NCBI GenBank assembly: GCA_004284765.1
Contig: NQJD01000005.1
Coordinates: 86,618 to 118,617 of the forward strand
Direction of reading: 5' to 3'
Source: Candidatus Electronema aureum
GTDB lineage: Bacteria > Desulfobacterota > Desulfobulbia > Desulfobulbales > Desulfobulbaceae
Length of the DNA stretch: 32,000 nt
Of the stretch, positions 1 to 24,215 are shown one piece after another; position 1 is the stretch's first letter, and every line of letters begins with the position of its first letter. A program made the position numbers and the translations under genes. The notes beneath the pieces are model-generated. The model had not been told where the DNA came from. It was given only the letters and a program-made list of their open reading frames with translations, and made no database searches.

Positions 1-2
1 CG

Positions 3-3080: not shown

Positions 3081-3128
3081 AAATGAGGTGGCCACCTCAT
3101 TGTTCGGGCTGACCGAATCGTTTACTAT
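3081..3128 (+). promoter_or_regulatory. promoter/operator module copy 1 (AAATGAG-N7-CCTCATTG-N2-CGGGC, then -10)
   Basis: Perfect 20-bp palindrome AATGAGGTGGCCACCTCATT at 3082-3101. The -35-like TTGTTC (3100-3105) is followed by a 17-nt spacer and -10 TACTAT (3123-3128). It lies 35 nt upstream of the permease start. The same module recurs at 6288-6335 and 13474-13521. Confidence 0.6.
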
Positions 3129-3163
3129 CCGCAGATACGATCAGCGGATACACCAACTAGACT

Positions 3164-4087
3164 ATGATGCAACAGACGCTCCGGCTCATGCTCACCCTGC
3201 TGGGCGTGTCGCTGCTTACCTTCCTGCTGTTGGAATTTGTGCCGGGCGACGCGGCAGAGCTGCTGCTCAGTGGCCAGCAGAACCTAAGCACCGAGAAGAT
3301 CACCGCGCTTCGGCAGGAGCTGGGCTTGGACGCGCCGCTGCCGCTGCGTTATCTCCGCTGGCTGAGACGCGCTGCTGTGCTCGACTTCGGCACGTCCTTC
3401 CGCAGCGGCGAGCCAGTCAGCCAAGAGCTGCTGCGCTGCCTGCCAATCACCCTGACGCTGGCCTGCTGCACCTTCTGCTTCGCAATCAGCATGGCGATGG
3501 CGGGCGGCATCGTTGCCGCGCTCTTGCAGAATCGGTTGCCCGACAAGATCCACCGCCTCTGGACAGTGCTGGCGGTCTCCGTTCCAGACTATTGGATGGG
3601 CCTGATGCTCCTGCTGATCTTCGGCCTCAAGCTGCGCTGGCTGCCAGTGGCAGGCGGCAGCGGCCTGAAGATATACATCCTGCCAACGCTTGCCCTCGGC
3701 CTCTCGGTCTCGGCAGCAGAAGGCCGGGTCTTCCGCGCCAGCATCATTGAGGTCATGAACCAAGACTGGGTGCTCTTTGCCCGCGCCAAAGGCCTGAGCC
3801 GGACGCAGGTCTTCCTTGGTCATGTCCTCAAGCCTGCACTGCTGCCGATGCTCTCCATCTGGGGAATGCTGCTGGGGCATCTGCTCGGCGGCGCGGTAGT
3901 GGTGGAGTCAGTCTTCTCACTGCCCGGATTGGGCAAGCTGGCTGCTGACGCAGTGCTGCAACGGGACATGCCAATGGTGCAGGGAACGGTTCTTCTAATG
4001 ACCTTCTTCTTTGTTGCAGCAAGCACTGTCATGGAGTCGGCACGGGCCGCGCTGCTGCCATTCCGGTCTGAGGCTCGGCTGCACTAG
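3164..4087 (+). CDS. ABC transporter permease, Dpp/Nik/Opp type (DppB/NikB-like)
   Basis: The N-terminus LRLMLTLLGVSLLTFLLLEFVPGDAAELL and the LGLDAPLPLRYLRWL motif are typical of DppB/NikB-family permeases, and the protein is multi-TM. Confidence 0.85.
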   Translation: MMQQTLRLMLTLLGVSLLTFLLLEFVPGDAAELLLSGQQNLSTEKITALRQELGLDAPLPLRYLRWLRRAAVLDFGTSFRSGEPVSQELLRCLPITLTLACCTFCFAISMAMAGGIVAALLQNRLPDKIHRLWTVLAVSVPDYWMGLMLLLIFGLKLRWLPVAGGSGLKIYILPTLALGLSVSAAEGRVFRASIIEVMNQDWVLFARAKGLSRTQVFLGHVLKPALLPMLSIWGMLLGHLLGGAVVVESVFSLPGLGKLAADAVLQRDMPMVQGTVLLMTFFFVAASTVMESARAALLPFRSEARLH

Positions 4088-4110
4088 ACTGCCTAACTTT
4101 CCCTGTATAC

Positions 4111-4194
4111 GAAACCATGCATTTGATTGGATCGAAACCATGCATTTGATCGGATCGAAACCATGCATTTGATCGGGACGAAACCATGCATTCG
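4111..4194. repeat. 23-bp tandem repeat, about 3.6 copies (GAAACCATGCATTTGATYGGATC)
   Basis: Units at 4111-4133, 4134-4156 and 4157-4179, plus a partial unit from 4180. The copies differ at only 1-2 positions. The array is non-coding (period not a multiple of 3) and sits between the permease and the receptor gene. Confidence 0.9.
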
Positions 4195-4241
4195 TGGATG
4201 CTCCGGCTATAACAAAAGACCTACTACAACATGAGGAGACG

Positions 4242-6251
4242 ATGAAGAGCACAGCTGTTTCAGTGGCGGCGATGACTGCCGTCCTGACGATTATGAACGG
4301 GCCGTCCGCTGCCCAAGAGCAGGCGCACACCATGAACGAGATCGTGGTCACTGCAACCAAGACCGAGCGCGAGGTGAAGGAGATTCCCACCAACGTGGCC
4401 GTGCTGACCGAAAAGGACATTGAGCAGATCCAGCCAACAGACACTATGGATCTGCTCCGCCATGTGCCTGGCTTGGTGCTCAACGGCATGGGCAGCAGCA
4501 AGGCATCGCATTATGCGGGAGTACGCGGTATGCAGCCCTCGTCGCGGGGCATGTTGCTGCTGATGGACGGGATTGAGATGAATGATCCCAGCAACTACCT
4601 CTCTGTTTCGACCATTCCGCTGGATGCCATCGAGCGAATCGAAGTGATTAAAACGCCTGCCTCGGTGCTCTACGGCCCGGCAGCAGTTGGCGGCGTGATT
4701 AACATCATCACCAAGAAGCCAAGCAAGCCGCTGGAGGCTAGGGTTGCAGCAGGCTATGGCTCCTTTGAGCGCAAGGAAGTGTCAGCGAATATCGCCGGAC
4801 TGCGGGAGAGCGGCCTCACCTACGGCCTCAATTATCAGATGCTGGACAGCGACGGCTACCGCGACAATAGCTGGCGCACGCAGCACGCCTTCACCCCGCG
4901 CCTTGGTTATCTTGGCGAGCAGGTGGACTTTGACCTTGTTGCCAACGTGGTTGATGCGGAATACGCCTTCCCCGGCGGTCTGCCTCTGAGCACGTGGGAA
5001 CAGGATCCAACCAAGTCCCTCCAGCCTGACCGCGAGGGCGATTCGGTCAAGAGCACAGTCGGCGCGACCATGAACTGGAGCCTGAACGAGAGCAACATCC
5101 TCAAGCTGAAGACCTCCTACCGCGACAACGACTGGGAGACTGAGGACTACGGCATGTTCTTCAAGGGCGATAACTACAAGGTCTGGACGGGCGAGGCCGC
5201 CTATCAGCACCTTGCGGTCATCAATGGGATGCGCAACTCGCTGCTCCTTGGCACAGAATACCGGGACCTGAACAATGAGCCGAGCATGTACATGGACGAT
5301 CAGCACGGCTCCATGCTCCTTAGCCAAGCGAAGATTCAGGAGCAGATCACCGGCTTCTTTGTTCAAGATGAGCTGTCGCCAACGGACAAGCTGCTGCTCA
5401 ACCTCGGTGTGCGCTACGACCAGATTGACACTGACTTCACCAACAAGCTGATGTCCTTAGCCAGCTTTGACAGCTCGCATGACAAGTGGAGTCCGCGCTT
5501 TGGCCTGACCTACACGGTCGCGCCAGAGCTGGCCTTCTTCGGCAACTACTCGCAGGGCATCCGCTCGGTCAACTTGGCCCGCTCGGCCTTCCAGCTCAAG
5601 AGCAACATCGTGCCGGAGACTGAGGAGAGCATTGAGGTCGGCCTGCGCGGCGTGCTGGGCGGGGTGATGGAATACACGGTGGCAGGCTTCCAAGTCAATA
5701 CCGAGGACAAGATCATCCAGAAGGAGCGGTATCTGTATGAGAACGCGGGCGAGGCCGAGTCCAAGGGCATCGAGGCCAGCCTGACCCGCAGCCTTCCCTG
5801 CGGCTTCTACGCCTCAGCAGACTACACCTACATCAATGCTGAGTTCACCGAGTTCTCCACGTCCAGCACCACGCCAGACGCGGCCATCTCCTACAACGGC
5901 AAGCGCGTGCCGTTGGTGCCGGAGAACATCTTCGGCCTGACCGTTGGCAGGAAGGACCCGCTCTATGGCCACCTGAGCGCATCGCTCCGTTATGTGGACG
6001 AGAAGTTCATTGACAACGCCAACACCCTCAGCTTGGGCGACTACACAGTGGTGGACGTGAAGTACACGGTCGGCTTGCAGGCGCTCTTCCCGACGGCACA
6101 GGGCTGGGACTTCACCTTGGCCGTCAACAACCTCTTTGACGAGACCTACGCTGAGTACGGCGAGGCCAACGGCGGCTCCTATGTTCCTGAGCCGGTGGCC
6201 TTCCCGGCGGACGGCGTGTCGGTCTTTGGTGGTATCAGCTATTCGTTCTGA
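4242..6251 (+). CDS. TonB-dependent outer-membrane receptor 1
   Basis: GGAGA RBS before the ATG at 4242. Signal peptide MKSTAVSVAAMTAVLTIMNGPSAAQE, TonB-box-like EIVVTATK, plug motif IERIEVIKTPASVLYGPAAVGGVINIITK, a long beta-barrel region and a terminal ...GGISYSF. Confidence 0.9.
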   Translation: MKSTAVSVAAMTAVLTIMNGPSAAQEQAHTMNEIVVTATKTEREVKEIPTNVAVLTEKDIEQIQPTDTMDLLRHVPGLVLNGMGSSKASHYAGVRGMQPSSRGMLLLMDGIEMNDPSNYLSVSTIPLDAIERIEVIKTPASVLYGPAAVGGVINIITKKPSKPLEARVAAGYGSFERKEVSANIAGLRESGLTYGLNYQMLDSDGYRDNSWRTQHAFTPRLGYLGEQVDFDLVANVVDAEYAFPGGLPLSTWEQDPTKSLQPDREGDSVKSTVGATMNWSLNESNILKLKTSYRDNDWETEDYGMFFKGDNYKVWTGEAAYQHLAVINGMRNSLLLGTEYRDLNNEPSMYMDDQHGSMLLSQAKIQEQITGFFVQDELSPTDKLLLNLGVRYDQIDTDFTNKLMSLASFDSSHDKWSPRFGLTYTVAPELAFFGNYSQGIRSVNLARSAFQLKSNIVPETEESIEVGLRGVLGGVMEYTVAGFQVNTEDKIIQKERYLYENAGEAESKGIEASLTRSLPCGFYASADYTYINAEFTEFSTSSTTPDAAISYNGKRVPLVPENIFGLTVGRKDPLYGHLSASLRYVDEKFIDNANTLSLGDYTVVDVKYTVGLQALFPTAQGWDFTLAVNNLFDETYAEYGEANGGSYVPEPVAFPADGVSVFGGISYSF

Positions 6252-6287
6252 GGCAGGCCGCCCGAAAGCCGGGAGCTTTGCCTATGG

Positions 6288-6335
6288 AAATGAGCTTCCC
6301 GCCTCATTGTCCGGGCAGTGCTGGCTTGTTATAGT
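6288..6335 (+). promoter_or_regulatory. promoter/operator module copy 2 (upstream of precursor peptide)
   Basis: AAATGAG (6288-6294), N7, CCTCATTG (6302-6309), TC, CGGGC (6312-6316). The -35-like TTGTCC (6307-6312) is followed by a 17-nt spacer and -10 TATAGT (6330-6335). TTTGCCTA lies 3 nt upstream (6277-6284), as in copy 1 (3070-3077). Confidence 0.6.
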
Positions 6336-6464
6336 AGGCAATTGAAAAGCAGCGGCATCCCCCAGCACTACCGCCGCTGCGTTTGGATGTCTGAGCTTTG
6401 CCCAACGGCGGTCTGCAATTCCGCAGGCCGCTTATCACAACCCTTCAACACTAAGGTGATTGAA

Positions 6465-6656
6465 ATGGCTATTCAAGCAGAAGTTCTCAAGCCCGAGTCT
6501 TCGTACAACGCTGCTCCCTGCGCTTGCTGCCACGGCGGTGCCTATCAGGCTGCGCCGTGCGCCTGCTGTCATGGCGGAGCGTACCAAGCCGCACCGTGTG
6601 CATGTTGCCACGGTGGTGCCTATCAGGCTGCCCCCGCAGCGTGCTGCCACGGCTGA
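6465..6656 (+). CDS. RiPP (TOMM-type) precursor peptide with repeated Cys/His-rich cores
   Basis: AAGGTG RBS 6 nt before the ATG at 6465. The 63-aa product is MAIQAEVLKPESSYN-(AAPCACCHGGAYQ)x3-AAPAACCHG. It sits immediately upstream of E1-like, YcaO and SagB-type genes on the same strand. Confidence 0.8.
   Translation: MAIQAEVLKPESSYNAAPCACCHGGAYQAAPCACCHGGAYQAAPCACCHGGAYQAAPAACCHG
6510..6653 (+). repeat. 39-bp coding tandem repeat (3 full units plus one 27-bp unit) inside the precursor gene
   Basis: Units at 6510-6548, 6549-6587, 6588-6626 and 6627-6653. The three full units encode identical 13-aa peptides but differ at 9, 7 and 12 of 13 codons pairwise, and every difference is synonymous. 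Confidence 0.9.
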
Positions 6657-6693
6657 GAGTAACGGTCGGAGCACTCTGACCTGAACGAAAAAA

Positions 6694-6728
6694 GGGGGCC
6701 TGCCTATCGGCAAGCCCCCTTTTCTTTG
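6694..6728 (+). terminator. intrinsic terminator / attenuator hairpin after the precursor gene
   Basis: GGGGGCCTGCC (6694-6704), loop TATC, GGCAAGCCCCC (6709-6719) with one mismatch, followed by TTTTCTTTG. Confidence 0.6.
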
Positions 6729-6732
6729 CAAC

Positions 6733-6870
6733 AAGGTGAGTGCGGTTCCAGCAGAAGTTCTCAAGCCCGAGTCTTTGCGCAACGCCACATCCTGCGCCTG
6801 CTGCCTCTGCCCCCGCAGAGACGAGCAGGCCATTCACCTCTTTTATCATTCTAGCCGCTCTGGAAACGCC
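6733..6870 (+). other. second, degraded copy of the precursor 5' region, in frame with the downstream E1-like gene
   Basis: AAGGTGA followed by agcagaagttctcaagcccgagtctt repeats 6453-6500 almost exactly. It would encode (V)SAVPAEVLKPESLRNATSCACCLCPRRDEQ.... The ATG is replaced, the only in-frame GTG (6736) sits inside the SD-like sequence, and there is no stop codon before the ATG at 6871. Confidence 0.6.
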
Positions 6871-7767
6871 ATGCAACAAAATGTTCTAAAACTCTGCCGC
6901 TGCCGCCAGATTCCTGTGCAGGAGCACAAGCTGCTGCTCAAATCAGCGGACACGTCGCTCTCTCTCGCCGCTGAGGGCATCCAGCGGCTGGCGGACTGCC
7001 TGCTGCCCCTGCTCGACGGCAGCCGCACTGAAGCGCAGGTGCTTGCTGCTGTGCCGACGGATTTACAGGAAGGGGCCAAGGAGCTGCTCCAGCTCTTTGC
7101 CAAGGAAGGCTTTCTCAGCACAGAACCGGCCAAGAGGCTGGCTGACTGCCGCATTGTCCTGATTGGTGGAGGACGGCTGGCGCAGAAGATCGCCCAGAGC
7201 TTGCGGGAGTCCGGCGCAGCGCAGTTAGAAGAACTCAGCGGCAGCGAGCCGGACAGCTGGTCTTTGCTGGAACGGCTGCGCAGTGCCGACATGGCTGTGG
7301 TCTGCACTGATCTCCCCCGCCCGGATATCTGCGAGCTGGTCAACAAGGCCGCCCTGACCCGCAAGCTGCCGTGGCTGCTGGTACAGATGGACGGCAGGGA
7401 CGGCTGGGTTGGGCCGCTTTTCATTCCCAGAGAGACTGGCTGCTATACCTGCCTGAGGCAGCGGCTGCTCTCCTGCTCCTTCCACGCGGAGACGGACAAG
7501 GCTGTCCATGCCGCCGCCTTGCGCACGCCTTTCACTGAGACGCTGGAGCTGCTGCCGCCCTTCGCCGACCTGCTTGCGGCTCTGGCCGCGCTGGAGGTCA
7601 TCCGCCACCTGACCGAACTTAGTCCGCCGCTCACGTATCAGGCCCAGCTGCTGCTGGACTGCATCACTGGCATTTCCCGCAGGGACGTGCTGCACCGGAT
7701 TCCGCGCTGTCCGGCCTGCTCCGAGACTGCCGAGCAGGTTTCCGCCATCCAGCCTTTCTCAGGGTGA
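6871..7767 (+). CDS. E1-like/ThiF-like TOMM leader-peptide-binding protein (cyclodehydratase partner with N-terminal RRE)
   Basis: PqqD-like RRE signature LLPLLDGSRTEAQVLAAV, Rossmann-like CRIVLIGGGRLAQKIAQSL, and CxxC pairs (GCYTCLRQR and RCPACS) as in E1-like/SagC-type proteins. Its stop lies 6 nt before the YcaO start. The start could instead be 6736 if the upstream relic is translated. Confidence 0.75.
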   Translation: MQQNVLKLCRCRQIPVQEHKLLLKSADTSLSLAAEGIQRLADCLLPLLDGSRTEAQVLAAVPTDLQEGAKELLQLFAKEGFLSTEPAKRLADCRIVLIGGGRLAQKIAQSLRESGAAQLEELSGSEPDSWSLLERLRSADMAVVCTDLPRPDICELVNKAALTRKLPWLLVQMDGRDGWVGPLFIPRETGCYTCLRQRLLSCSFHAETDKAVHAAALRTPFTETLELLPPFADLLAALAALEVIRHLTELSPPLTYQAQLLLDCITGISRRDVLHRIPRCPACSETAEQVSAIQPFSG

Positions 7768-7773: not shown

Positions 7774-9060
7774 ATGATGATGAGCCATTTGCAGATCACC
7801 CCGCAGCAGCGCGGCCAAGAGAAGCTGTTGGATGAATTCGTCAGCACCCGGCTTGGCCCGGTGAGGAACCTCTATGAGCTGACCCGTGAGCCGGACGCGC
7901 CAGACATCTTCAGCTATGTCTCAGAACTCTGCGACATGACGCAGTTCAGCTTCCAGCAGTCCGGCACAGTCAGCACCGGCATTGGCATCACCCGCTTTCA
8001 TGCCCGTACAGCAGCTATCGGCGAAGCACTGGAACGCTACGCCAGCGGCTTCTATAATCCGCAAAGCCAAGTCCGGCTCGCCTCCTACAAAGAGCTGCGT
8101 GCAGACGGGCTACGAGCTGCCCATCCCTCAGACTTCGGCCTCTACTCTGAGCAGCAGTATCAGCAGTGCGGCTACCTCCGTCGCTTTACCGAGGAGACTA
8201 GGATCGGCTGGGCCAAGTCAGTCGCACTGACTGACAGCCATGCTGAGGTCTGGCTGCCCGCCTGCTTTGTCTTCCTGCCCTATACGTACATGGCAGGTGA
8301 GACGCAGATATCCTCGCAGATATCTACCGGCCTGTCCGCCTCCTTCGACTTTGACACAGCGGTTATGGGCAGTATCTGTGAGATCGTCGAGCGCGAGGCA
8401 GCGATGCTCACCTGGCTGCACAATCTCCCCTGTGCTGAACTCAGCTTCAGTCCTGACTGCTGGTTCTCTGAGGTTTTTGCCCAGCGGTTTGCCCGCTCTG
8501 GCTTTGCATACCGTCTTTGCCATGCGCCGGGCGACCTTGGCCTGCACACCGTCTTTGCCATGATGGTAGATAAGGGCCGCCACGTCGTCTCCACCGGCTC
8601 TTCCACGAAGACCGATCCACAACAGGCAGCACTGAAGGCCCTGCTGGAGACCGTGCAGGTGCGCGAGCTGCTTCAGTCCATTCCCAAGAGGCGCACGCCA
8701 GCCAAGTTCCATCTAGAGCTGTACCAAGATATTCCTCTCAGTCCTGACCTGCATCAGTTCTTCCATTCAGGTATCACCCAGCATTCCGTGGGTGAGGAGA
8801 CCGCGTTGACGCTGCCAGAATTGCTGGCCAACTGCAAGCAGGCGGGCATAGATGTCTATGTCATTGACCTGACCACCGCTGACCTTGCTGACGCGGGCCT
8901 CAAGGTGGTGCGCGTGGTGATGCCGCAAGCTGTACGCCTCTACCGCGAGTTTGAGCTACCCTATCTTGGCGGCAAACGGTTGTACGAGGCTCCGGCACGG
9001 ATGGGCTTCGCTGCCATGTCTGAGGCAGAGCTGAATCTGCAACCCCATCCCTTTGGCTGA
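7774..9060 (+). CDS. YcaO-family cyclodehydratase (SagD-like azoline synthetase)
   Basis: YcaO signatures GIGITRFHARTAAIGEALERYA and ICEIVEREAAMLTW. The C-terminus ...LQPHPFG resembles the proline-rich PxPxP tail described for azoline-forming YcaOs. Confidence 0.9.
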   Translation: MMMSHLQITPQQRGQEKLLDEFVSTRLGPVRNLYELTREPDAPDIFSYVSELCDMTQFSFQQSGTVSTGIGITRFHARTAAIGEALERYASGFYNPQSQVRLASYKELRADGLRAAHPSDFGLYSEQQYQQCGYLRRFTEETRIGWAKSVALTDSHAEVWLPACFVFLPYTYMAGETQISSQISTGLSASFDFDTAVMGSICEIVEREAAMLTWLHNLPCAELSFSPDCWFSEVFAQRFARSGFAYRLCHAPGDLGLHTVFAMMVDKGRHVVSTGSSTKTDPQQAALKALLETVQVRELLQSIPKRRTPAKFHLELYQDIPLSPDLHQFFHSGITQHSVGEETALTLPELLANCKQAGIDVYVIDLTTADLADAGLKVVRVVMPQAVRLYREFELPYLGGKRLYEAPARMGFAAMSEAELNLQPHPFG

Positions 9061-9064
9061 TACG

Positions 9065-11021: not shown

Positions 11022-11067
11022 AAATTGCCGGTGGCGGTTTGCGAACGGCTTTACGGATATCTGGACT

Positions 11068-13440: not shown

Positions 13441-13473
13441 TGCCACCCAGCCATCCGGGCATTTCACCCAGAA

Positions 13474-13521
13474 AAATGAGTTTTCTGCCTCATTGCGCGG
13501 GCGGGCGGAATATGGTTTAAG
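13474..13521 (+). promoter_or_regulatory. promoter/operator module copy 3 (upstream of receptor 2)
   Basis: AAATGAG (13474-13480), N7, CCTCATTG (13488-13495), CG, CGGGC (13498-13502). The -35-like TTGCGC (13493-13498) is followed by a 17-nt spacer and a weak -10 TTTAAG (13516-13521). Confidence 0.5.
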
Positions 13522-15910: not shown

Positions 15911-15944
15911 TTTTTTGCTATCAATTTCAACGCAAAGGGTAATT

Positions 15945-16484: not shown

Positions 16485-16485
16485 G

Positions 16486-17265: not shown

Positions 17266-18365
17266 CACAATGTGTGGCCAAGTTGGCCGCCGCGTTCGCG
17301 TTAGCCGCCGCCCTTGCAGCCGGAAATGCCGCAGCAGCAGGCTCGCGCACCCTGTCTGACATGAACAGCCGGACGGTCACTGTGCCGGAGACAATCCGCA
17401 AGGTTGTTCCGTTAAGCGGGGCATTGCGTTTTCTGGTGTATATGCAGTCCCTTGATCTGGTCAGCGGCATGGAGCGTATCGAGCAGCGGCACACCGCCGC
17501 AGGCAGACTGTACGGGCTGGCCACCCGCGATCTTGCCCGGAAGCTGCCAATCGTCGGCGAAGGTGGCCCCGGCAAGCTGCCTGATTTTGAGCGGATCATC
17601 GAGCTTGGGCCGGACGTGATCATCGTCATGGGACTTGACAGCAGCCAGATTGCGAACATCGAGCAGAAAACCGGGATTCCAGTTTTTTCACTGAATTACG
17701 GTGCGCCGGGCGTGCTTGATGTGCAGAGCACCCGCACCGCTCTCGGCCTGCTGGGGCAGCTGCTTGGCCGCAGCGGGCGTTCAGCGCAGCTCATCGCCGA
17801 GATGGACCGGCTGGAGGCTGATTTTGCCCGCCGCACTGCCGGACTGGAGACGGAAGACCGCCAGACGGCGTATGTTGGCGCAGTTTCTTTGAAAGGTGTT
17901 CAAGGAATCACCAGCACGGACGCAGCCTATGCCCCGCTGGCTTGGGCAGGCGGCAAAAACGTGGCTGCCGAGAGCGGCAAATCCGGTCATCTCTTCATTG
18001 ACCCGGAACAGCTGCTTGCGTGGAATCCGGCCATTTTGTTCCTTGATGCCGCCAGCTTGACCACGATTCAGGAGGACAGCCGGAAACGAGCTGATTTTTA
18101 TCAGCGGCTACAGGCCGTCCAAAAGAATCAGGTCTATTTGGTGATGCCCTACAACGCCTACCACACCAATATTGAAATAGCCTATGCCGACACCTACTTT
18201 ATCGGCAAAACTCTGTACCCGTACCGCTTTCAGGATGTTGATCCTGCGGCCAAGGCCGACGAAATCTTTCAGGCGTTTATCGGCCTGCGCGGCTACGAAG
18301 CACTGAAAAAGGAATACGGCGGGTTCAGGCAGATGGAGTTTGGAGCGCAGCATGGCTTCCGCTGA
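17262..18365 (+). CDS. ABC transporter substrate-binding protein, siderophore/cobalamin/heme type (FecB/BtuF-like)
   Basis: Signal peptide MTQCVAKLAAAFALAAALAAGNAAAAG. RTVTVPETIRKVVPLSG...PDFERIIELGPDVIIV is typical of the Peripla_BP_2 fold. Confidence 0.8.
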   Translation: MTQCVAKLAAAFALAAALAAGNAAAAGSRTLSDMNSRTVTVPETIRKVVPLSGALRFLVYMQSLDLVSGMERIEQRHTAAGRLYGLATRDLARKLPIVGEGGPGKLPDFERIIELGPDVIIVMGLDSSQIANIEQKTGIPVFSLNYGAPGVLDVQSTRTALGLLGQLLGRSGRSAQLIAEMDRLEADFARRTAGLETEDRQTAYVGAVSLKGVQGITSTDAAYAPLAWAGGKNVAAESGKSGHLFIDPEQLLAWNPAILFLDAASLTTIQEDSRKRADFYQRLQAVQKNQVYLVMPYNAYHTNIEIAYADTYFIGKTLYPYRFQDVDPAAKADEIFQAFIGLRGYEALKKEYGGFRQMEFGAQHGFR

Positions 18366-19407
18366 CCTTTCGTTGACTGCCGACTATTTGCGGCTTGTCC
18401 GCCGAAAAAATATGTTCGGCTTCGCTCTGCTGCTCCTGCTCGCTGCCGCAGCAGGGCTTTCTTTGCATGTCGGCTCGTTGCAGCTGCCGTGGTCGGAAAT
18501 TTTCTCCGCCCTCTGGAACTGGGATGCCGCCGACCGGACGGCCCATGTCATTCAGCAAATACGGCTGCCGCGAGCCACAGCGGCGGTTTTGGCTGGCGGC
18601 AGCCTCGGCATTGCTGGCGCTGTCATGCAGACGGTTCTGAAAAATCCCTTGGCATCGCCCTTCACCATCGGAGTTTCGCACGGAGCCGCCTTTGGGGCTT
18701 CCTTTGCAATCATTTTTCTGGGCGCGGGCCAAGCCGCAGGAGCTGGAACCTTCACTCCCGGCCTGCTGATCGCCTCTTCCTTTGCCGGCGCACTGCTGGC
18801 TGTGGGTTTTATCCTCATGCTGGCCTCTATTAAAGGGGTGAGCACAGAGGCTGTGATTTTGTCCGGCGTGGCTCTGTCCTCTTTTTTCGGAGCAGCCACC
18901 ATGCTGCTCCAATATTTTGCCAGCGATGTCCAAGTAGCTGCCTCTGTCTTCTGGACCTTCGGCGATCTTGGCAAGGCTGGCTGGACGGAAAATCTGCTGA
19001 TGGGAGGGGTCTTGGCGGCGACTTTAACCTTCTTCCTCTTCGACCGCTGGAATCACAACGCCCTGCTCTGGGGGGATGAAGTGGCGGCCAGCCTCGGCAT
19101 CCGGGTGCGGAAGCTGCGGCTCACCGCCATGCTGCTCTCTTCGCTGACTGTTGCCGTGACCACCTCATTTCTTGGGGTGATCGGTTTTGTCGGCCTGATG
19201 GCCCCGCATCTGGCCCGTCTGTTTGTTGGCAGCGACCACCGTTTCCTTCTCACCTCCTCCGCCTTGACCGGCGCACTGATGCTGCTGGTGTCCGACATCA
19301 TCGCCCGCATCCTGATTCCGCCGGTCATCCTGCCAGTGGGCATCATCACCTCCTTTGCCGGAACCCCCCTGTTCCTTTACCTGCTCACCCGGAAGGGGAA
19401 AAGCTGA
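18352..19407 (+). CDS. FecCD-family ABC transporter permease
   Basis: IRLPRATAAVLAGGSLGIAGAVMQTVLKNPLASPFTIGVS and GIITSFAGTPLFLYLL are FecCD/BtuC hallmarks. GGAG RBS before the ATG at 18352. Confidence 0.85.
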   Translation: MASADLSLTADYLRLVRRKNMFGFALLLLLAAAAGLSLHVGSLQLPWSEIFSALWNWDAADRTAHVIQQIRLPRATAAVLAGGSLGIAGAVMQTVLKNPLASPFTIGVSHGAAFGASFAIIFLGAGQAAGAGTFTPGLLIASSFAGALLAVGFILMLASIKGVSTEAVILSGVALSSFFGAATMLLQYFASDVQVAASVFWTFGDLGKAGWTENLLMGGVLAATLTFFLFDRWNHNALLWGDEVAASLGIRVRKLRLTAMLLSSLTVAVTTSFLGVIGFVGLMAPHLARLFVGSDHRFLLTSSALTGALMLLVSDIIARILIPPVILPVGIITSFAGTPLFLYLLTRKGKS

Positions 19408-19409
19408 CC

Positions 19410-20174
19410 ATGCTGGCTTTAGACAACCTCTCGTTCGCCTTCAACGGCAGGGCGATCCTGAACAAGGTCAGCTTCCGGCTGGCCAGCGGAGAAATGGCCG
19501 CCCTGCTTGGAGTCAACGGATCGGGCAAATCAACCCTGCTGAAAACCATTAACGGCATTCTGAAACCCAAAGAAGGTGCTGTACTGGTGGAAGGCGTTGC
19601 CCTGCACGGCCTTTCCGGCAGAGAAATAGCGAAGCGGATTGGCTATATGCCGCAAAAAAGCAGTGGAACTGCCTGCACCGTCTTTGATGCGGTGCTGCTG
19701 GGAAGAAAGCCGCATTTTGACCGCAGCGTCACTCCGCATGATTTGGCGGCAGTGGAAAGAGTGCTGAAAAGGCTTGGCTTGGAAAAGCTGGCCCTGCGGG
19801 AGACTGCGGAACTCTCCGGCGGAGAGCTGCAAAAAGTGGTCATCGCCAGAGCATTGGTGCAGGAACCGAAGGTGCTGCTTTTGGATGAGCCTGTCAATCA
19901 TTTGGACATCCGCAACCAGCTTGAAACGATGTCCATCCTGCGCGAGATCACACGGGAAATGAATCTACTGACCATCACCGTGCTGCACGATCTGACCATA
20001 GCCCTGCGCTACGTCGACCGCTTTGTCCTGCTGAAGGACGGTGCGCTGCACGCCTGCGGAGACCGCCGTGTCATGACCCCGGAAGCAATCCGCGAAGTCT
20101 TTGGAATGCACGCCGTGATCCGGGAGATTGACGGCATTCCGGTCGTCCTGCCTCTCGGTTCAGCAACCTGCTGA
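19410..20174 (+). CDS. ABC transporter ATP-binding protein (FecE/BtuD-like)
   Basis: Walker A GVNGSGKST, signature LSGGELQKV and Walker B LLLDEP. It starts 2 nt after the permease stop. Confidence 0.9.
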   Translation: MLALDNLSFAFNGRAILNKVSFRLASGEMAALLGVNGSGKSTLLKTINGILKPKEGAVLVEGVALHGLSGREIAKRIGYMPQKSSGTACTVFDAVLLGRKPHFDRSVTPHDLAAVERVLKRLGLEKLALRETAELSGGELQKVVIARALVQEPKVLLLDEPVNHLDIRNQLETMSILREITREMNLLTITVLHDLTIALRYVDRFVLLKDGALHACGDRRVMTPEAIREVFGMHAVIREIDGIPVVLPLGSATC

Positions 20175-20227
20175 AGATGCTGCAATATAATGCGAATCAG
20201 AAGGGCTTGGCGCACAGGCTGTGACAG

Positions 20228-21082
20228 ATGGCTGCTCAGAACAAGACGATCTTTCCCGCATCAGCAAGACCGCTCAACGGAATGCTGCTGACAGGAATTC
20301 TGCTCTGCACCCTGCTGCTGGTGTTCTGCATGGGCGGGGAGCGACTGGTTCCGCATGACCCGCTGGCCGTCAATTTGGCGCAGCGGCTGGCTCCGCCCTC
20401 GGCGGCGCATCTCCTTGGCACTGACCAGCTCGGCAGGTGCGTGCTGTCACGTGTCATCTGCGGAGCGCGGAACTCGCTCGCCTCGGCCCTTGCCGCCGTC
20501 GGCCTCGCCCTGAGCATCGGTCTGCCTGCCGGTGTTCTTGCCGGGCTGGGAGCGCGGCGCATTGACCAAGCTCTGATGGGCCTCTGCGACGTGGTGCTGG
20601 CCTTTCCCTTTCTCATTCTCGCCCTTGCTTTGACTGCCGTGCTGGGGCCGTCGCTGCGCAGCCTAATTCTCGGCGCAGGGCTGGCAGGCTGGGCGTGGTG
20701 GGCAAAGTTTGTCCAGGGCATGACTGCGGCTGCCAAGGAAAAAGACTTTGTCCACCAAGGCCGGGCAATGGGCCTCAGCCGCTTCCGCCTGCTGCGGCAT
20801 CACATCCTGCCGCAAATTTTGCCGCCGCTCTTGGTCAGCGTCTCTCTCAGCGCGGGCCGGATGATTGTCGCCATTTCCAGCCTCAACTATCTCGGCCTCG
20901 GTATTCAGCCGCCGCAGCCAGAATGGGGCGTGATGCTGCGCGAGTCCATGCTCCACATCGCCTCCGCGCCGTGGCTGGCTGTCGCGCCGGGCTTGGCGGC
21001 CAGCATATCCGTGCTGGCCTTCAATCTGCTCGGCGAGGGACTGAAAGATCATTTCCAAATCCGGCCTGTTCATGCTGCTTGA
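20228..21082 (+). CDS. ABC transporter permease, Dpp/Nik/Opp type (DppC/NikC-like)
   Basis: LVPHDPLAVNLAQRLAPPSAAHLLGTDQLGRCVLSRVICGAR is the DppC/NikC N-terminal signature. The C-terminus is NLLGEGLKD. Confidence 0.85.
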   Translation: MAAQNKTIFPASARPLNGMLLTGILLCTLLLVFCMGGERLVPHDPLAVNLAQRLAPPSAAHLLGTDQLGRCVLSRVICGARNSLASALAAVGLALSIGLPAGVLAGLGARRIDQALMGLCDVVLAFPFLILALALTAVLGPSLRSLILGAGLAGWAWWAKFVQGMTAAAKEKDFVHQGRAMGLSRFRLLRHHILPQILPPLLVSVSLSAGRMIVAISSLNYLGLGIQPPQPEWGVMLRESMLHIASAPWLAVAPGLAASISVLAFNLLGEGLKDHFQIRPVHAA

Positions 21083-21833
21083 ACTCGACAACCTGAGCAT
21101 CAGCATAGGCGGACAGGAGCTTGTCCGCGAAGTCAGCTTCAGCATAGAGCGCGGCGAGGTTTTCGGACTGCTCGGCGCAAGCGGCAGCGGCAAAACCCTG
21201 CTCGCCTCTGCCCTCTGCGGCCTGCTGGCACCGCCGATGCGCATCAGCGGCGGCGCAATCCGCTTTGCCGGAGAAACGCTGCATCCCGGCAGCACGAAGC
21301 AGCTCGCCCGCAAACGCGGCAGACATGTCTTCATGATGTTTCAAAGCGCGGCAGCCGCCCTCAATCCTTACATGACCGTGGGCAGGCAGATTGCTGAAGC
21401 CTTGCAGTCAGCGCACAGGCTTTCCGCCAAGGCCGCTCTGCGCGAAGCGGGCGCACTGCTGGAGAAGGTCGGCCTGCGCGGCGATTTAGTCAGCGCGTAT
21501 CCGTTTCAACTCAGCGGCGGCATGCAGCAGCGCGTTTTAATCGCTGTCGCCTTGGGTCTTCATCCTGAACTGCTGATCGCCGACGAGCCAACCACCGGTC
21601 TTGATGCCGCCGCCGCGCTGCATGTGCTGGAGCTGTTGCGCAGTCTGCAACAGGAAGGCGCAGCCATCCTCTTCATCTCACACGACATCCGGACAGTCTC
21701 TTTTCTTGCCAAGCGAACCGGGGTGATGTGCGGAGGCCAGCTCGTCGAGACGGGAGAAACTGAGCAGCTGCTTGCTGCGCCACAGGATTCTTACACCCGC
21801 GAGCTGACATCCGCTTTCAATGTGCTGCGATGA
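21072..21833 (+). CDS. ABC transporter ATP-binding protein, Dpp/Nik type (NikD-like); the only such ATPase in the window
   Basis: Walker A GASGSGKT, signature LSGGMQQRV and Walker B LIADEPTTGLD. It overlaps the permease gene by 11 nt. Confidence 0.85.
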   Translation: MLLELDNLSISIGGQELVREVSFSIERGEVFGLLGASGSGKTLLASALCGLLAPPMRISGGAIRFAGETLHPGSTKQLARKRGRHVFMMFQSAAAALNPYMTVGRQIAEALQSAHRLSAKAALREAGALLEKVGLRGDLVSAYPFQLSGGMQQRVLIAVALGLHPELLIADEPTTGLDAAAALHVLELLRSLQQEGAAILFISHDIRTVSFLAKRTGVMCGGQLVETGETEQLLAAPQDSYTRELTSAFNVLR

Positions 21834-21913
21834 ATGTGTGAACAGAAAGAAAGCGGCGGGCCGAAGCGCAGGCTCTCCCGCAGAAACAATAAAAAGTGCA
21901 TAGGAAGAATATT

Positions 21914-22531
21914 ATGTGGGAACTGATGGACAAAGGCGGATGGGTCATGTGGCCGCTGCTGGCCTGCTCGGTGATTGTGACCGCCGTCATCTTCGAGCGG
22001 GCTTTCTTCTGGACAGGCATAGTCAGACGACGCAACCGCCCATTGCGGGACGAGCTGCTGGCCCTTGCGCGGCAGAGCGAATGGGCGATGATCGAGGAAA
22101 AGACCGAGGGCTGCACGGATCCGGTAGTGCGCGTGCTGCATGTCGGCATTTTGCATCGGGACTTTGACATGGCCAAGGCTATGGAAGATGAGGCGCAGCA
22201 GATCGTGAAAAGAATGTCGCAGTTCATGCCGGTGATGGACACTATCATTACCGTGGCGCCGATGCTCGGCATATTGGGCACAGTGACCGGCATCATGTCC
22301 GCATTCAACGTCTTGAGTGGCAGTGGCATGGCAGATCCGAAGCTGGTTACTGGCGGCATTGCCGAGGCCTTGATCACCACAGTCGCAGGCTTGGTCATCT
22401 CCATCGCCACAGTCTTTCCGTACAACTATTTCAAAAGCCGGATCGAACATGCCATTCACTTTATGGAGAAATACGCCACCCGCCTTGAGGTGGTCTGCCG
22501 TAAACTCCACGCGCAGGAGAACATGCAATGA
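21914..22531 (+). CDS. exbB: MotA/TolQ/ExbB proton-channel protein
   Basis: MWELMDKGGWVMWPLLACSVIVTAVIFER and TVAPMLGILGTVTGIM...GGIAEALITTVAGL. AGGAAG RBS before the ATG at 21914. It is followed by exbD and tonB with overlapping junctions. Confidence 0.85.
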   Translation: MWELMDKGGWVMWPLLACSVIVTAVIFERAFFWTGIVRRRNRPLRDELLALARQSEWAMIEEKTEGCTDPVVRVLHVGILHRDFDMAKAMEDEAQQIVKRMSQFMPVMDTIITVAPMLGILGTVTGIMSAFNVLSGSGMADPKLVTGGIAEALITTVAGLVISIATVFPYNYFKSRIEHAIHFMEKYATRLEVVCRKLHAQENMQ

Positions 22532-22962
22532 AGCTGAGTAGGAAAGGTATCTCGCCGGTCCGTCTGGAGATGACTCCTCTGATGGACATTATCTTTCTGC
22601 TGCTGGTCTTCTTCATTTATGCCATGATGTCCATGACCGTTCATCATGGCAAGCAGCTGGATCTGCCCCAGTCAAGCAGCGCGACAGTGGAAATGCAGGA
22701 GGCCGTGAGCATCACTATCGAGTCGGATAAAGGCGGTTTGAGAATCTCCGTCGATGGCGGTGCGGCCTTCAGCGGCGTTGAGCGTCTGCAGGAGATTCTG
22801 ACGGAGAAGAAGGCCAAGGCCCCACAGGGTAAGGAGCTTGATCTGCAAATATTTGCCGATAAGACAGTCTCCTACCAGAGCCTGTACAGCGTGCTGGATA
22901 GCATCACTCAGGCAGGGCTATTCCGCGTCTCCCTGCAAGCCACGTTGCAGGAGGCCCCATGA
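22528..22962 (+). CDS. exbD: ExbD/TolR biopolymer transport protein
   Basis: The N-terminus EMTPLMDIIFLLLVFFI is typical of ExbD/TolR. The ATGA overlap with exbB and the overlapping tonB start indicate coupling. Confidence 0.85.
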   Translation: MKLSRKGISPVRLEMTPLMDIIFLLLVFFIYAMMSMTVHHGKQLDLPQSSSATVEMQEAVSITIESDKGGLRISVDGGAAFSGVERLQEILTEKKAKAPQGKELDLQIFADKTVSYQSLYSVLDSITQAGLFRVSLQATLQEAP

Positions 22963-23978
22963 ACGAGGCGGCGCATCGCTTGCTACCTGCTGGCCTGCTG
23001 ACGTTGGCTCTGCACAGCGCGTTTCTTTCATGGCAAATGGAGAACCGGCCCATTGAGCTGCCCAAGCCGGAGAAGATATCCGTTACCCTGCGGCAGCCAC
23101 CCCCGCCGCCACCGCCGCCGCAACAGCAGAGGATCGTCAAAGAGCTGCTCCCGCCACCAGAGCTGCAGCCCGTGGAGCGGCAGCCCTTGGAAACCCTGCC
23201 GCCGCCGCAAAGTAAAGTGGTCAAACTGAGAAAGCCACTCCCGGAGGTCATCAAGCAGATACAGCATAAGCCCTTGGAACAATTGCCGCCCGCGCAGAGC
23301 CGGATAGCGCGTAGGATGCCGCCTCCGCCGCCAGTCGCTCCCGTCGCGCTGCGGCCATTGGAGACCTTGCCGCCTGCGCTTCCGGCCCAAGGCCGCATTC
23401 TCCGCCCGCTGCCGCGTCTGCCTGATACTCTTGCCATCAGCCAGCCGACACTGAAGCCGCTGGAGACGCTGCCGCCAGTGCAAGAGGAAGTCTTTGAGGA
23501 GGTGTTTGAAGAGGAGCTTGTCCAGACGGAGCCGGTGCACGAGGAGATTGTGGAGGAATACAGCCCGCCGCCAGTCGAGGACTTTGTTGAGGTGGTCGAG
23601 GAGCAGGAGCAGAGAAGGCAGCGCGACTACGTGCCGCCGCAGCCACAGCCTGCACGCCAGCGGCAGGCGGAGAGCAGCTCTGCTTCTTCCAGCGCAGGCG
23701 ATCAGGAGGCTGCGCCGCTTTATGCCAGCAATCCGCCGCCTGCGTACCCGATGCAGGCCCGGCGACGCGGGCTTCAGGGGATGGTTATCATTGAAGCCCT
23801 GATTGATGTCAGCGGCAATGTGACTGATCTCCGCCTCTTTGCCAGCAGTGGTCACGGTATCTTAGATAAGGCGGCTCTGAACTCCGTGCGCGGCTGGCGT
23901 TTCCAGCCAGGCACAGTCGGCGGCAGACGGAAAGCGATGTGGGTGAAAGTGCCGGTGCGTTTCGAGTTACATACATAG
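22959..23978 (+). CDS. tonB: TonB-family energy transducer with unusually long repeat-containing linker
   Basis: N-terminal anchor LLPAGLLTLALHSAFL, a Pro-rich region, and a C-terminal TonB domain PPAYPMQARRRGLQGMVIIEALIDVSGNV...WRFQPG. Confidence 0.85.
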   Translation: MNEAAHRLLPAGLLTLALHSAFLSWQMENRPIELPKPEKISVTLRQPPPPPPPPQQQRIVKELLPPPELQPVERQPLETLPPPQSKVVKLRKPLPEVIKQIQHKPLEQLPPAQSRIARRMPPPPPVAPVALRPLETLPPALPAQGRILRPLPRLPDTLAISQPTLKPLETLPPVQEEVFEEVFEEELVQTEPVHEEIVEEYSPPPVEDFVEVVEEQEQRRQRDYVPPQPQPARQRQAESSSASSSAGDQEAAPLYASNPPPAYPMQARRRGLQGMVIIEALIDVSGNVTDLRLFASSGHGILDKAALNSVRGWRFQPGTVGGRRKAMWVKVPVRFELHT

Positions 23979-24180
23979 GAGTTACGCAGTTCGATTGCCA
24001 ACCCATTGATTTTATTTAACTGGCGATTTATGTGACAAAAAGACAACTTGCTGTAATGGTTGAGCTTCGTATTTCAACTGCGTTTAACTCCTATATTTAT
24101 ACATTGATACATGCGGATTTTTTGCGAATCAAAATGGCACCCTTCTATATACTAAAAGGTCTCCCTTTTTAGATATAAAA

Positions 24181-24215
24181 ACCTCCCTTTTGATATATAG
24201 AAGGGAGGTTTTTTG
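24181..24215 (+). terminator. intrinsic terminator closing block 3
   Basis: ACCTCCCTT (24181-24189), an 11-nt loop, AAGGGAGGT (24201-24209), then TTTTTT. Confidence 0.65.

Follow-up and report, generated by a model that had tools for sequence, protein, structure and literature searches.

The conserved core of a gene cluster in the freshwater cable bacterium Candidatus Electronema aureum appears, on balance, to encode a pathway that makes a ribosomal azole-peptide metallophore, exports it and recaptures it, a putative function that is well supported by genomics. This core consists of a Nik/Opp-type permease (perm1), a TonB-dependent receptor (TBDT1), the precursor peptide, an E1-like protein, a YcaO protein, an MFS exporter, a SagB-like dehydrogenase, a methyltransferase (MT1), a binding protein (SBP5), a second permease (perm2), an ATPase and an ExbB-ExbD-TonB set.

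Coordinates refer to the window, the whole 32,000-nt stretch of DNA that was analysed. An earlier note on this DNA had counted 22 genes with overlapping or ≤10-nt junctions throughout; the recount gave 20 genes and, at 6736-6810, the decayed remains of a second precursor, with only 11-12 of the 19 junctions that tight. The remaining 7-8 measure 154, 213, 214, 136, 278, 53 and 62-80 nt, and a 34-nt junction is added if the FmdE start is 15945. Gene content and order were as that note described, and all of its domain assignments, apart from a possible RRE in the E1-like protein, held in Pfam and NCBIfam profile searches of the open reading frames. The features are as follows.

3062..3118 (+): module copy 1, upstream of the NikB-like permease; AATGAG-N8-CTCATT overlapping a TTGTTC -35, with a TACTAT -10
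3164..4087 (+): NikB/Opp2B-like ABC permease, perm1; PF00528 (BPD_transp_1), PF19300
4110..4192 (+): 23-nt tandem repeat, 3.6 copies (CGAAACCATGCATTTGATCGGAT), immediately upstream of TBDT1
4242..6251 (+): TonB-dependent receptor 1, TBDT1; plug PF07715 and barrel PF00593; conserved with the biosynthetic genes
6269..6335 (+): module copy 2, upstream of the precursor; TTGTCC-17-TATAGT, extended -10
6465..6656 (+): precursor peptide, 63 aa; leader and four cassettes ending CCHG
6686..6728 (+): strong terminator-like hairpin and T-run, 3' of the precursor; -26.6 kcal/mol, z = -4.7
6736..6810 (+): decayed second precursor copy (leader AEVLKPES..., broken core); 83% nucleotide identity to 6472-6536
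6871..7767 (+): E1-like (ThiF-type) cyclodehydratase partner; PF00899; TIGR03882 67.9 bits, cut-off 36.9
7774..9060 (+): YcaO cyclodehydratase; PF02624; TIGR03604 (SagD-type) 232.8 bits, cut-off 219.25
9053..10276 (+): MFS_3-type exporter; PF07690 (MFS_1), PF05977 (MFS_3)
10251..10931 (+): SagB-type (nitroreductase-fold) dehydrogenase; PF00881; TIGR03605 73.4, just below the cut-off of 78.4
11068..11874 (+): class I SAM methyltransferase MT1; stop codon overlaps the SBP5 start
11871..13331 (+): Nik/Opp-family periplasmic binding protein SBP5; PF00496 (SBP_bac_5)
13455..13511 (+): module copy 3, upstream of TBDT2; same AATGAG-N8-CTCATT core
13610..15910 (+): TonB-dependent receptor 2, TBDT2, first gene of the apparently inserted block; Pfam
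15945..16484 (+): FmdE-like cytoplasmic metal-binding protein with C-terminal zinc ribbon; HxHxC...C site kept
16417..17265 (+): second class I methyltransferase, MT2; profile search
17262..18365 (+): Peripla_BP_2 binding protein; matches PDB 2etv at 8e-81
18340..19407 (+): FecCD permease; nearest BtuC/FecD
19410..20174 (+): ABC ATPase of the Fec-type importer; Pfam
20228..21082 (+): NikC-like permease perm2; Pfam and NCBIfam
21072..21833 (+): single NikD-like ATPase, which with perm2 completes the Nik/Opp importer; Pfam and NCBIfam
21896..23978 (+): ExbB, ExbD, TonB energising set; Pfam

The azole-peptide (TOMM) core proposed in the earlier note is real, with both the YcaO and the E1-like protein above their NCBIfam cut-offs. 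The nearest solved homologs of both are the cyanobactin heterocyclases TruD, LynD and MusD; judged by these matches, the azole-peptide enzymes of the locus are bona fide. The YcaO protein is 100% identical to a Ca. Electronema aureum protein. The precursor has the sequence MAIQAEVLKPESSYNAAP(CACCHGGAYQAAP)x3 AACCHG, a repeat with a 39-nt period and 3.7 copies (TRF). The cassette Y-x-x-(A/T)-P-x-(A/G)-C-C-H-G is invariant across divergent precursors, which carry two to four repeats each; precursor identity falls to 53-61%, yet A-P-x-(A/G)-C-C-H-G does not change. Conservation among relatives' precursors does not extend to the first Cys of CACCHG, and the previous description of the product as a poly-thiazole was overstated, since each repeat conserves no cysteines beyond the Cys-Cys pair. 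The invariant C-C-H-G fits a thiazole/His ligand. The decayed second precursor copy is intact in locus L002, and L001 carries a 59-aa His-rich open reading frame within the operon. The hairpin at 6686..6728 would set the ratio of precursor to enzyme transcripts.

In the proposed mechanism, the E1-like/YcaO cyclodehydratase and the SagB-type dehydrogenase would process the invariant Cys-Cys pair of each cassette, most likely yielding a 2,4'-bithiazole joined to His by an amide bond. A planar N4 site would then arise from both thiazole nitrogens, the amide nitrogen of His and its imidazole; the 5-5-6 chelate rings would match those of the ATCUN motif for Cu(II)/Ni(II). The product would exit the cytoplasm via the MFS_3 exporter, either as the whole multi-site peptide or as excised cassettes; no protease for leader removal or cassette excision is present in the locus. 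An intact core of ~4 kDa would be an uncommon cargo for an MFS exporter; this and the missing protease count against the metallophore reading. The metal complex would re-enter through TBDT1, powered by ExbBD-TonB, be bound by SBP5 and be moved into the cell by the Nik/Opp-type permeases and ATPase.

Part of the evidence for this reading is comparative. Biosynthesis and uptake remain linked in six further loci with enough context (L001, L002, L003, L091, L092 and the P0059 contig), in all of which the receptor, exporter and Nik/Opp importer are interleaved with the biosynthesis genes; YcaO identity to the query is 79% in L001 and L091, 71% in L002, 52% in L092 and 49% in L003. Orthologous cores without uptake genes had been raised as a prospect that would count against a functional link, and every adequately covered core keeps them. 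The fragments L087, L088 and L095 agree. The MFS exporter adjoins YcaO in L001, L002, L087, L088, L091 and L092, and perm2 and the ATPase lie immediately 3' of the binding protein in L001, L002 and L092. About 80 distant TOMM loci (YcaO identity 25-38%) have no homologs of TBDT1, SBP5, MT1 or the MFS exporter and carry the usual ABC exporter instead.

Uptake-only relatives also occur (L089 from Ca. Electrothrix sp. AW5, L090 and L093/L094), and producers beside receptor-only genotypes are typical for shared metallophores. Biosynthetic genes were not found in the marine Electrothrix loci by the searches made here; the cluster is accessory, and this counts against the metallophore reading. MT1, which has no signal peptide, accompanies the binding protein in the YcaO-less, uptake-only loci L089, L093 and L094, including that of Ca. 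Electrothrix. Because it travels with the binding protein even there, MT1 may not be part of biosynthesis, and its earlier assignment to the biosynthetic core, otherwise upheld for the precursor, E1-like, YcaO and SagB-type genes, is doubtful. The metallophore model does not explain why MT1 is kept in loci without YcaO, a point that counts against it.

The three gene blocks had been said to share one promoter/palindrome module, and this was borne out: the AATGAG-N8-CTCATT core occurs three times against 0.11 expected by chance, a count reached in 0 of 100 shuffles; the module copies themselves span 3062-3118, 6269-6325 and 13455-13511. The module is kept in L001, L002, L088 and L091, also before a divergent exbB operon; in L001 the ExbB-ExbD-TonB set runs divergently to perm1 behind a module copy of its own. 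Since the module is common to all transcription units, a single regulator probably controls the entire regulon. To our knowledge, the operator is unlike NikR, Fur or Zur boxes, which counts against the metallophore reading. As a separate observation, the 23-nt unit CGAAACCATGCATTTGATCGGAT found upstream of TBDT1 recurs in the Ca. Electrothrix sp. AW5 locus L089 at 5883-5946.

The block at 13332-20227, previously taken as an integral part of the system, is absent from all relatives; TBDT2 has no ortholog in L001, L002, L003, L091 or L092. By this comparison TBDT2, FmdE, MT2 and the type II (Fec/Btu-like) ABC importer at 17262..20174 (+; Peripla_BP_2, FecCD permease and ATPase) are a lineage-specific insertion outside the conserved system. 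This second chelate-uptake block would have been inserted and then placed under the common module. Its FmdE retains a His2Cys2 site, occupied by Zn/Ni in PDB 2GLZ; a Zn/Ni site and gene neighbourhoods with metal transporters are reported for FmdE (PMC2954224). The earlier interpretation is thus supported in part, for the TOMM core and its conserved linkage, and not for this block, the placement of MT1 or the poly-thiazole.

TBDT1 scored 223.1 against TIGR01783 (cut-off 223.5), and its closest solved structures are YncD/PqqU, CntO/FoxA and FhuA. The importer parts score best against the nickel families Opp2B, NikC, NikD and Opp5A_nikA of NCBIfam: the top model for perm1 is the Opp2B nickel permease (313.6 bits, under its cut-off of 350), and those for SBP5 are Opp5A_nikA and nickel_nikA, both under cut-off, with NikA, CntA and GsiB as PDB relatives. 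As every nickel-family match lies under its curated cut-off, the substrate is unreadable from these matches. The nickel demand of the host is unusually large, and its TonB-dependent receptor plus Nik/Opp set was earlier singled out as cable-bacteria-specific (PMC11247825). Nickel is the most likely metal, as a leading guess ahead of copper, cobalt and zinc. A metallophore of the same kind for copper, cobalt or zinc is possible, though we think it doubtful. In its favour, Cu(II) is served no less well than Ni(II) by a planar N4 (thiazole, amide, imidazole) or Cys/His set, Nik/Opp importers of the Cnt type accept a wide range of substrates, the crystallised FmdE was loaded mostly with Zn (PMC2954224), and a tetrapyrrole methylase and a DUF4198 protein adjoin L093. 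The nickel-importer family matches and the exceptional nickel demand oppose it, neither point being decisive.

It is improbable that the azole peptide acts as a microcin B17-type or Trojan-horse antibiotic, with the receptor and Nik/Opp importer serving an unrelated nutrient (nickel ions, Ni-histidine, peptides) or target-cell entry. Characterised linear azole peptides are mostly antibiotics, the distant relatives have ordinary ABC exporters, and the receptor and importer also occur without biosynthetic genes; however, a Pfam search found neither an immunity gene nor an ABC exporter among the locus genes, the interleaved order is still seen at 49% YcaO identity, the conserved residues are well-known metal ligands, and a producer normally would not co-express its own toxin's import route from one promoter module. 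Equally little credence is given to a bufferin-like product that buffers or chaperones metal in the periplasm or envelope, one version of which would deliver nickel to the periplasmic conductive fibres; the receptor and importer would then deal with nickel that is free or bound to other chelators. In its favour, Cys and His are abundant in the core, the MFS exporter guarantees only periplasmic delivery, and cable bacteria enrich periplasmic nickel for a nickel bis-dithiolene cofactor (PMC11247825). Against this, a co-regulated, co-conserved dedicated TonB-dependent receptor with its own ExbBD-TonB implies an extracellular ligand, Electrothrix-type loci have no biosynthetic genes even though the fibres are common to all cable bacteria, and genotypes with only the receptor are in keeping with a shared molecule that diffuses. 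Sulfur, redox or peptide signalling, with the modified peptide exported and re-imported via the Opp-like system as a cue, is highly improbable: elsewhere among bacteria, importers of the Opp family do transport peptide signals, and the metallophore model leaves the methyltransferase/binding-protein pairing unexplained, but TonB-dependent import, best matches to nickel-type ABC families, recruitment of FmdE to the same regulon and the His-rich L001 frame indicate metals, and no sensor/regulator pair is present at the locus.

The closest parallels to the proposed metallophore system are known chelator loci. Methanobactins (Mbn) are ribosomal copper chelators (chalkophores) of methanotrophs, whose operons hold precursor, modifying enzymes, exporter, the TonB-dependent receptor MbnT and the SBP_bac_5-family MbnE together, the same make, export and recapture logic in one locus. 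Unlike them, the present locus has YcaO/E1/SagB azole chemistry rather than oxazolone-thioamide, a precursor cassette repeated 2-4 times, an MFS rather than a MATE exporter, a complete Nik/Opp permease and ATPase set, and no ECF sigma/anti-sigma pair; the earlier statements that MbnB (DUF692/MNIO) and MbnC, a leader peptidase and a dedicated regulator are missing agree with the lack of any matching frame within 3081-24215. Opine metallophore systems (staphylopine CntABCDF/CntE, pseudopaline CntO) likewise pair an MFS-type exporter with an ABC importer of the Nik/Opp family, to which Gram-negatives add a TonB-dependent receptor, for a broad-spectrum Ni/Co/Zn chelator, and the pseudopaline receptor CntO is among the solved receptors nearest TBDT1. 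They differ in that the ligand here would be a ribosomal peptide, with no nicotianamine-synthase-like CntL or opine dehydrogenase CntM; the CntA model gives the binding protein 81 bits (cut-off 800). The cable-bacterial binding protein reportedly resembles S. aureus Opp1A more than E. coli NikA (PMC11247825).

The E1-like protein, YcaO heterocyclase and FMN dehydrogenase recall cyanobactins (patellamide/trunkamide), other TOMMs and microcin B17, and the repeated cassettes with conserved flanks recall PatE. Patellamides bind Cu(II) in vitro. Here, unlike in cyanobactins, the heterocyclase is split over two genes, and PatA/PatG proteases and a macrocyclase are lacking; the dedicated receptor, importer and TonB genes are absent from the ~80 distant TOMM loci, and we know of no characterised TOMM cluster that has them. 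The non-ribosomal thiazoline siderophores yersiniabactin and pyochelin also use thiazol(in)e nitrogens as metal donors, and yersiniabactin also supplies Ni and Cu. Their loci include a TonB-dependent receptor of their own, an importer in the inner membrane and a regulator of the AraC type (an AraC-type gene adjoins the cluster in L092), with NRPS/PKS synthesis and a YbtPQ-type importer as opposed to the ribosomal Cys-Cys-His cassette and Nik/Opp-type importer seen here. A literature search found no publication describing such a system; if the metallophore reading is true, the product would be a metal scavenger of a chemically new type, perhaps serving to obtain nickel.

The siderophore-type linkage of biosynthesis, exporter, receptor, binding-protein-dependent importer and TonB complex in the Candidatus Electronema aureum cluster (window 3081-24215) is conserved across its relatives. 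The principal genes and border features are as follows.

1147-2052, - strand: IS110-family transposase, cluster border
4242-6251: TonB-dependent receptor (TBDT1)
6465-6656: precursor peptide
6871-7767: E1-like protein
7774-9060: YcaO
11068-11874: methyltransferase (MT1)
11871-13331: Nik/Opp binding protein (SBP5)
13610-15910: TonB-dependent receptor (TBDT2)
16417-17265: methyltransferase (MT2)
24259-24723: receptor Plug-domain fragment, cluster border

An interleaved set comprising a NikB-like and a NikC-like permease (perm1 and perm2), TBDT1, precursor, E1, YcaO, MFS transporter, SagB, MT1, SBP5 and ATPase was found, with small rearrangements, in all relatives whose flanking DNA extends far enough. 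Six further loci with long context were counted (YcaO identity 49-79%), and the short contigs L087, L088 and L095 agree with the linkage.

Table. Relatives with long context and state of the biosynthesis-uptake linkage.
L001 (Desulfobulbaceae UBA5173): YcaO identity 79%; linkage kept
L002: YcaO identity 71%; two intact tandem precursors; linkage kept
L091: YcaO identity 79%; linkage kept
37.5-kb JGI contig: linkage kept
L092: YcaO identity 52%; linkage kept
L003: YcaO identity 49%; linkage kept

Orthologous cores devoid of uptake genes, which if routine would according to the earlier note make the adjacency fortuitous, were not found: 6/6 long-context relatives keep the linkage and distant TOMM loci do not, an outcome in favor of the metallophore reading. 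A metagenome scan with the YcaO family alignment yielded distant relatives only among the matches listed (identity <=33%); these served as a negative control and were not counted among the family. The distant TOMM loci among the matches listed (~80; YcaO identity 25-38%) have the usual layout of E1, YcaO, SagB and ABC exporter, and no homologs of TBDT1, SBP5, MT1 or the MFS transporter were found in these ~80 listed loci; two further distant TOMM examples agree in having no such uptake linkage. Receptor, MT1 and SBP5 orthologs with no YcaO nearby were located in Ca. Electrothrix sp. AW5 (L089, only a 9.6-kb contig), in L093 and L094, and in L090 (1.14-Mb contig). Producers beside receptor-only genotypes are the usual population structure of secreted metallophores.

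Several relatives carry additional neighbors. A radical SAM/SPASM enzyme and a second MFS transporter lie directly upstream of the receptor in L002 (891-3593) and may provide extra tailoring. L092 contains a second, divergently oriented set of receptor, binding protein, permease and ATPase (1-7265); it also has two ATPase genes versus one in the Electronema clade. Among the uptake-only loci, L090 adjoins a NifH/NifDK-like trio (11493-15167) and L093 a receptor, a tetrapyrrole methylase and a DUF4198 protein (9469-14119); these neighbors hint at a tetrapyrrole or Ni/Co context.

Judged by its enzymes, the locus is a predicted TOMM cluster. YcaO passes the SagD-type TOMM model TIGR03604 (232.8 bits, cut-off 219.25; PF02624 E = 4e-57), and its acidic ExxER-type motifs and C-terminal PHPFG are invariant across 11 family members. 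The protein matches a Ca. Electronema aureum protein at NCBI with 100% identity, which assigns the window to a freshwater cable bacterium of the Desulfobulbaceae. The adjoining E1-like protein passes TIGR03882 ("TOMM precursor leader peptide-binding protein"; 67.9 vs 36.9) and scores 36.3 vs 28.1 with PF00899; no RiPP recognition element was detected at its N-terminus, where residues 1-130 are covered by no profile or PDB match. Single-sequence AlphaFold models of the E1-like protein (mean pLDDT 42.6) and MT1 (mean pLDDT 35) were unusable and were set aside. The dehydrogenase, whose gene is kept in all family loci, passes PF00881 (32.4 vs 23.5) and falls 5 bits under the SagB-specific TIGR03605 (73.4 vs 78.4); apart from these two points, the domain assignments made previously from the sequence were borne out by Pfam and NCBIfam. 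Among solved structures, YcaO and the E1-like protein both come closest to the cyanobactin heterocyclases TruD, LynD and MusD. Unlike cyanobactin clusters, this one is missing the PatA/PatG-type subtilisin proteases and macrocyclase, and neither in the window cluster nor in L001, L002, L091 and L092 did a peptidase domain turn up, which for the window agrees with the absence of a leader peptidase reported earlier.

The precursor, a short ORF beside the YcaO and E1-like genes, encodes 63 aa with 11 Cys, a leader ahead of a Cys/Ser/Thr-rich core, and reads MAIQAEVLKPESSYNAAP-(CACCHGGAYQAAP)x3-AACCHG. The ORF is kept in L001, L002 (two copies), L088, L091 and L092. The family is rare: only four precursor clusters emerged from a search with the precursor and a profile search over 1.84 billion representatives; the other profile matches were long low-complexity proteins and were discarded. 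The precursors contain two, three or four repeats and diverge down to 53-61% identity. All of them keep (A/T)-P-x-(A/G)-C-C-H-G unchanged, CACCHG has A, S or D in place of its first Cys, and Y/F-x-x-(A/T)-P precedes every unit including the first, which indicates a cassette architecture resembling that of cyanobactin precursors. The mature peptide could consist either of excised cassettes or of one multi-site chelator.

The precursor is followed on its 3' side by a strong terminator-like hairpin (-26.6 kcal/mol, z = -4.7), beyond which lies a decayed second precursor copy (6736-6810, 83% DNA identity to 6472-6536). If the E1-like ORF is extended upstream to a GTG start, this remnant falls into its reading frame. 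The second gene is intact and nearly identical in L002 (6519-6713) and decayed in the window, L001, L088 and L091, where the leader AEVLKPES... is kept and the core broken. In what is predicted to be the precursor's 5' UTR (6348-6430), the window shares two hairpins with L001, L088 and L091; they are not found in L002, and in the alignment of this UTR the variation is too small to judge covariation.

The previously proposed system also included TBDT2, an FmdE-like protein, MT2 and a Fec/Btu-type ABC importer. These genes are present, but they fall outside the conserved system: together they form a block (13332-20227) that parts SBP5 from perm2 in this genome only. In L001, L002, L092 and the JGI contig, SBP5 is followed directly by perm2 and the ATPase, which makes the block an insertion, a second chelate-uptake module with its own promoter-module copy. 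In the FmdE-like protein the His-x-His-x-Cys...Cys site, occupied by Zn/Ni in PDB 2GLZ, is retained, and FmdE genes typically adjoin metal transporters (PMC2954224). The binding protein of the block is very close to Thermotoga TM0189 (PDB 2etv, E = 8e-81).

MT1 had been placed in the biosynthetic core. The gene does belong to the set, but its stop codon overlaps the start of SBP5, making MT1-SBP5 (11068-13331) the tightest unit of the locus, and this pair is retained without YcaO in the uptake-only loci L089, L093 and L094. Its retention there suggests that MT1 may serve uptake or utilization, with the imported ligand as its substrate, instead of biosynthesis. No signal peptide was predicted in MT1. 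PDB and NCBIfam searches gave no clue to the substrate of MT1 or MT2, returning generic class I methyltransferase matches only (CbiT, Erm, daptide, CpaM).

Twenty genes were counted in the cluster, against the 22 claimed in the earlier note. Junctions are overlapping or <=10 nt for most genes, as stated there, but 7-8 of the 19 span 34-278 nt. G+C content is ~59% in the cluster vs ~54% in the flanks, and a sulfatase fragment borders the cluster together with the transposase and the Plug-domain fragment; the G+C contrast, the transposase and the gene fragments fit a horizontally acquired island. A 47-nt inverted repeat is present at the borders (window 1147-2957 and 24113-24723), and one of its arms recurs upstream of L001 perm1 (5044-5085) at 90% identity, which points to a small repeat element common to the island borders and L001.

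Two tandem repeats of 23 nt, different in sequence, were also observed. Just upstream of TBDT1, the unit CGAAACCATGCATTTGATCGGAT occurs in 3.6 copies with 95% matches (window 4110-4192), each containing an ATGCAT palindrome. Ca. Electrothrix sp. AW5 (L089, 5883-5946) has this unit in inverted orientation, in 2.5 copies at ~90% identity, between its receptor ortholog and that of MT1; L001, L002 and L091 lack it at the corresponding place. The copies may be a series of regulator sites, or else a small mobile repeat. The other repeat (window 10935-11012; 3.4 copies, 74% matches) occupies part of the 136 nt that separate the dehydrogenase gene from MT1. In L001 alone, the place of the CGAAACCATGCATTTGATCGGAT repeat, between perm1 and the receptor, is occupied by a 59-aa very His-rich ORF (MKKTHEHEHQHAHTHKHEHTHSHDHD..., 6179-6358), whose product may bind metal or act as a regulatory leader.

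The analysis bears out the three-fold promoter/palindrome module described in the earlier note: AATGAG-N8-CTCATT is present at 3082, 6289 and 13475, against 0.11 occurrences expected by chance. The copies precede perm1, the precursor and TBDT2; in L001 the module also stands in front of a divergent exbB-exbD-tonB operon. Alignment of 13 copies from five loci gave the consensus CCGGGCAnTTTGCCCAGnAAAATGAGnCnnCCGCCTCATTGTnCGGGCAG...TGnT(A/T)nnnT. A TTGnnC -35 hexamer overlaps with the right palindrome arm, and a 17-nt spacer separates it from the -10 element, which is often extended; the palindrome is therefore centered near -43. With this geometry the regulator could be a class II activator, or it could be a repressor that occludes the -35 hexamer. 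In sequence and spacing the operator does not fit what we take to be the NikR, Fur, Zur, RirA, CRP/FNR, sigma-54 and PvdS-type consensus. A further copy in L002, downstream of the ATPase (15178), has no obvious gene behind it.

No regulator gene was found inside the window cluster, as had been noted before, and Rfam searches of the whole window at gathering thresholds detected no riboswitch (B12, NiCo or other) or other RNA family. An AraC-type gene adjoins the cluster in L092, a divergent family member lacking the module. A sigma-54-dependent response regulator is encoded 1.4 kb downstream of the cluster (window 25420-26793). In the related JGI contig a GAF/sigma-54 activator lies beside the ATPase, and at the matching position in L001 there is a minus-strand ORF equal to it in length (537 aa; 17164-18777). 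Since the modules are unlike the sigma-54 consensus, a link of this regulator to the cluster appears doubtful.

By analogy of gene content, the functionally closest known systems would be methanobactin operons and the opine metallophore Cnt systems. Methanobactin operons likewise hold exporter, TonB-dependent receptor and SBP_bac_5 genes in the precursor locus (here MFS_3, PF07715/PF00593 and PF00496), a functional analogy only; MbnB (DUF692/MNIO) and MbnC are absent here, none of the 20 ORFs giving such a Pfam match, in keeping with the earlier note. Cnt systems combine an MFS exporter with a Nik/Opp importer, with or without a receptor, and the same combination is present here, whereas CntL (nicotianamine-synthase-like) and CntM (opine dehydrogenase) are absent by Pfam and NCBIfam.

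On chemical grounds, heterocyclization and oxidation of the Cys-Cys pair would give a 2,4'-bithiazole whose carboxamide is the amide of the His. Chelate rings of the 5-5-6 type could then arise from four nitrogens, those of the two thiazoles, of the deprotonated amide and of the imidazole. The ATCUN site for Cu(II)/Ni(II) has this ring pattern, which the bithiazole-His site would present pre-organized in plane.

Nickel is pointed to by the importer scores, host demand, the L001 His-rich ORF and the proposed planar N4 ligand set; copper, cobalt and zinc are candidates beside it. The importer parts score best against nickel families, each below cut-off (Opp2B 313.6/350, NikC 265.6/358, NikD 217.2/319, Opp5A_nikA 160.7/600), so that no NikABCDE/Opp-type component reached the curated equivalog score. 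Cable bacteria have an exceptional nickel demand for their conductive fibers, and the published genomic survey, which picked out only the receptor and Nik/Opp importer, described that set as cable-bacteria-specific, possibly by lateral transfer (PMC11247825). The reference list of the same paper points to a stable single-strain sediment culture of Ca. Electronema aureum.

On the genomic evidence, the metallophore interpretation is the best-supported reading of the cluster, and we lean slightly towards it. Considerably bolder, and in our estimate unlikely, is the full proposal that this is the first YcaO-derived (bithiazole-histidine) ribosomal nickelophore, a secreted public good with which freshwater Electronema extracts nickel from sulfidic sediment for nickel enzymes and the nickel bis-dithiolene fiber cofactor, marine Electrothrix keeping only receptor, methyltransferase and binding protein as pirates. 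In the literature on YcaO/TOMM metallophores and cable bacteria, no YcaO-derived metallophore was found, as the earlier note had maintained, nor any mention of the cluster; the relevant papers were PMC11247825 and the FmdE structure paper only.

If the metallophore reading is right, the product would be a ribosomal metallophore with chemistry different from that of known ones. To our knowledge, ribosomal metallophores with their own uptake machinery have so far essentially been methanobactins only; an azole-peptide version, if true, would be a second, chemically unrelated class, and the large YcaO/TOMM family would gain a function other than antibiosis. For the way in which cable bacteria, with their unusually large need for nickel, obtain this metal in sulfidic sediment, the locus gives a concrete candidate that can be tested in Ca. 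Electronema aureum.
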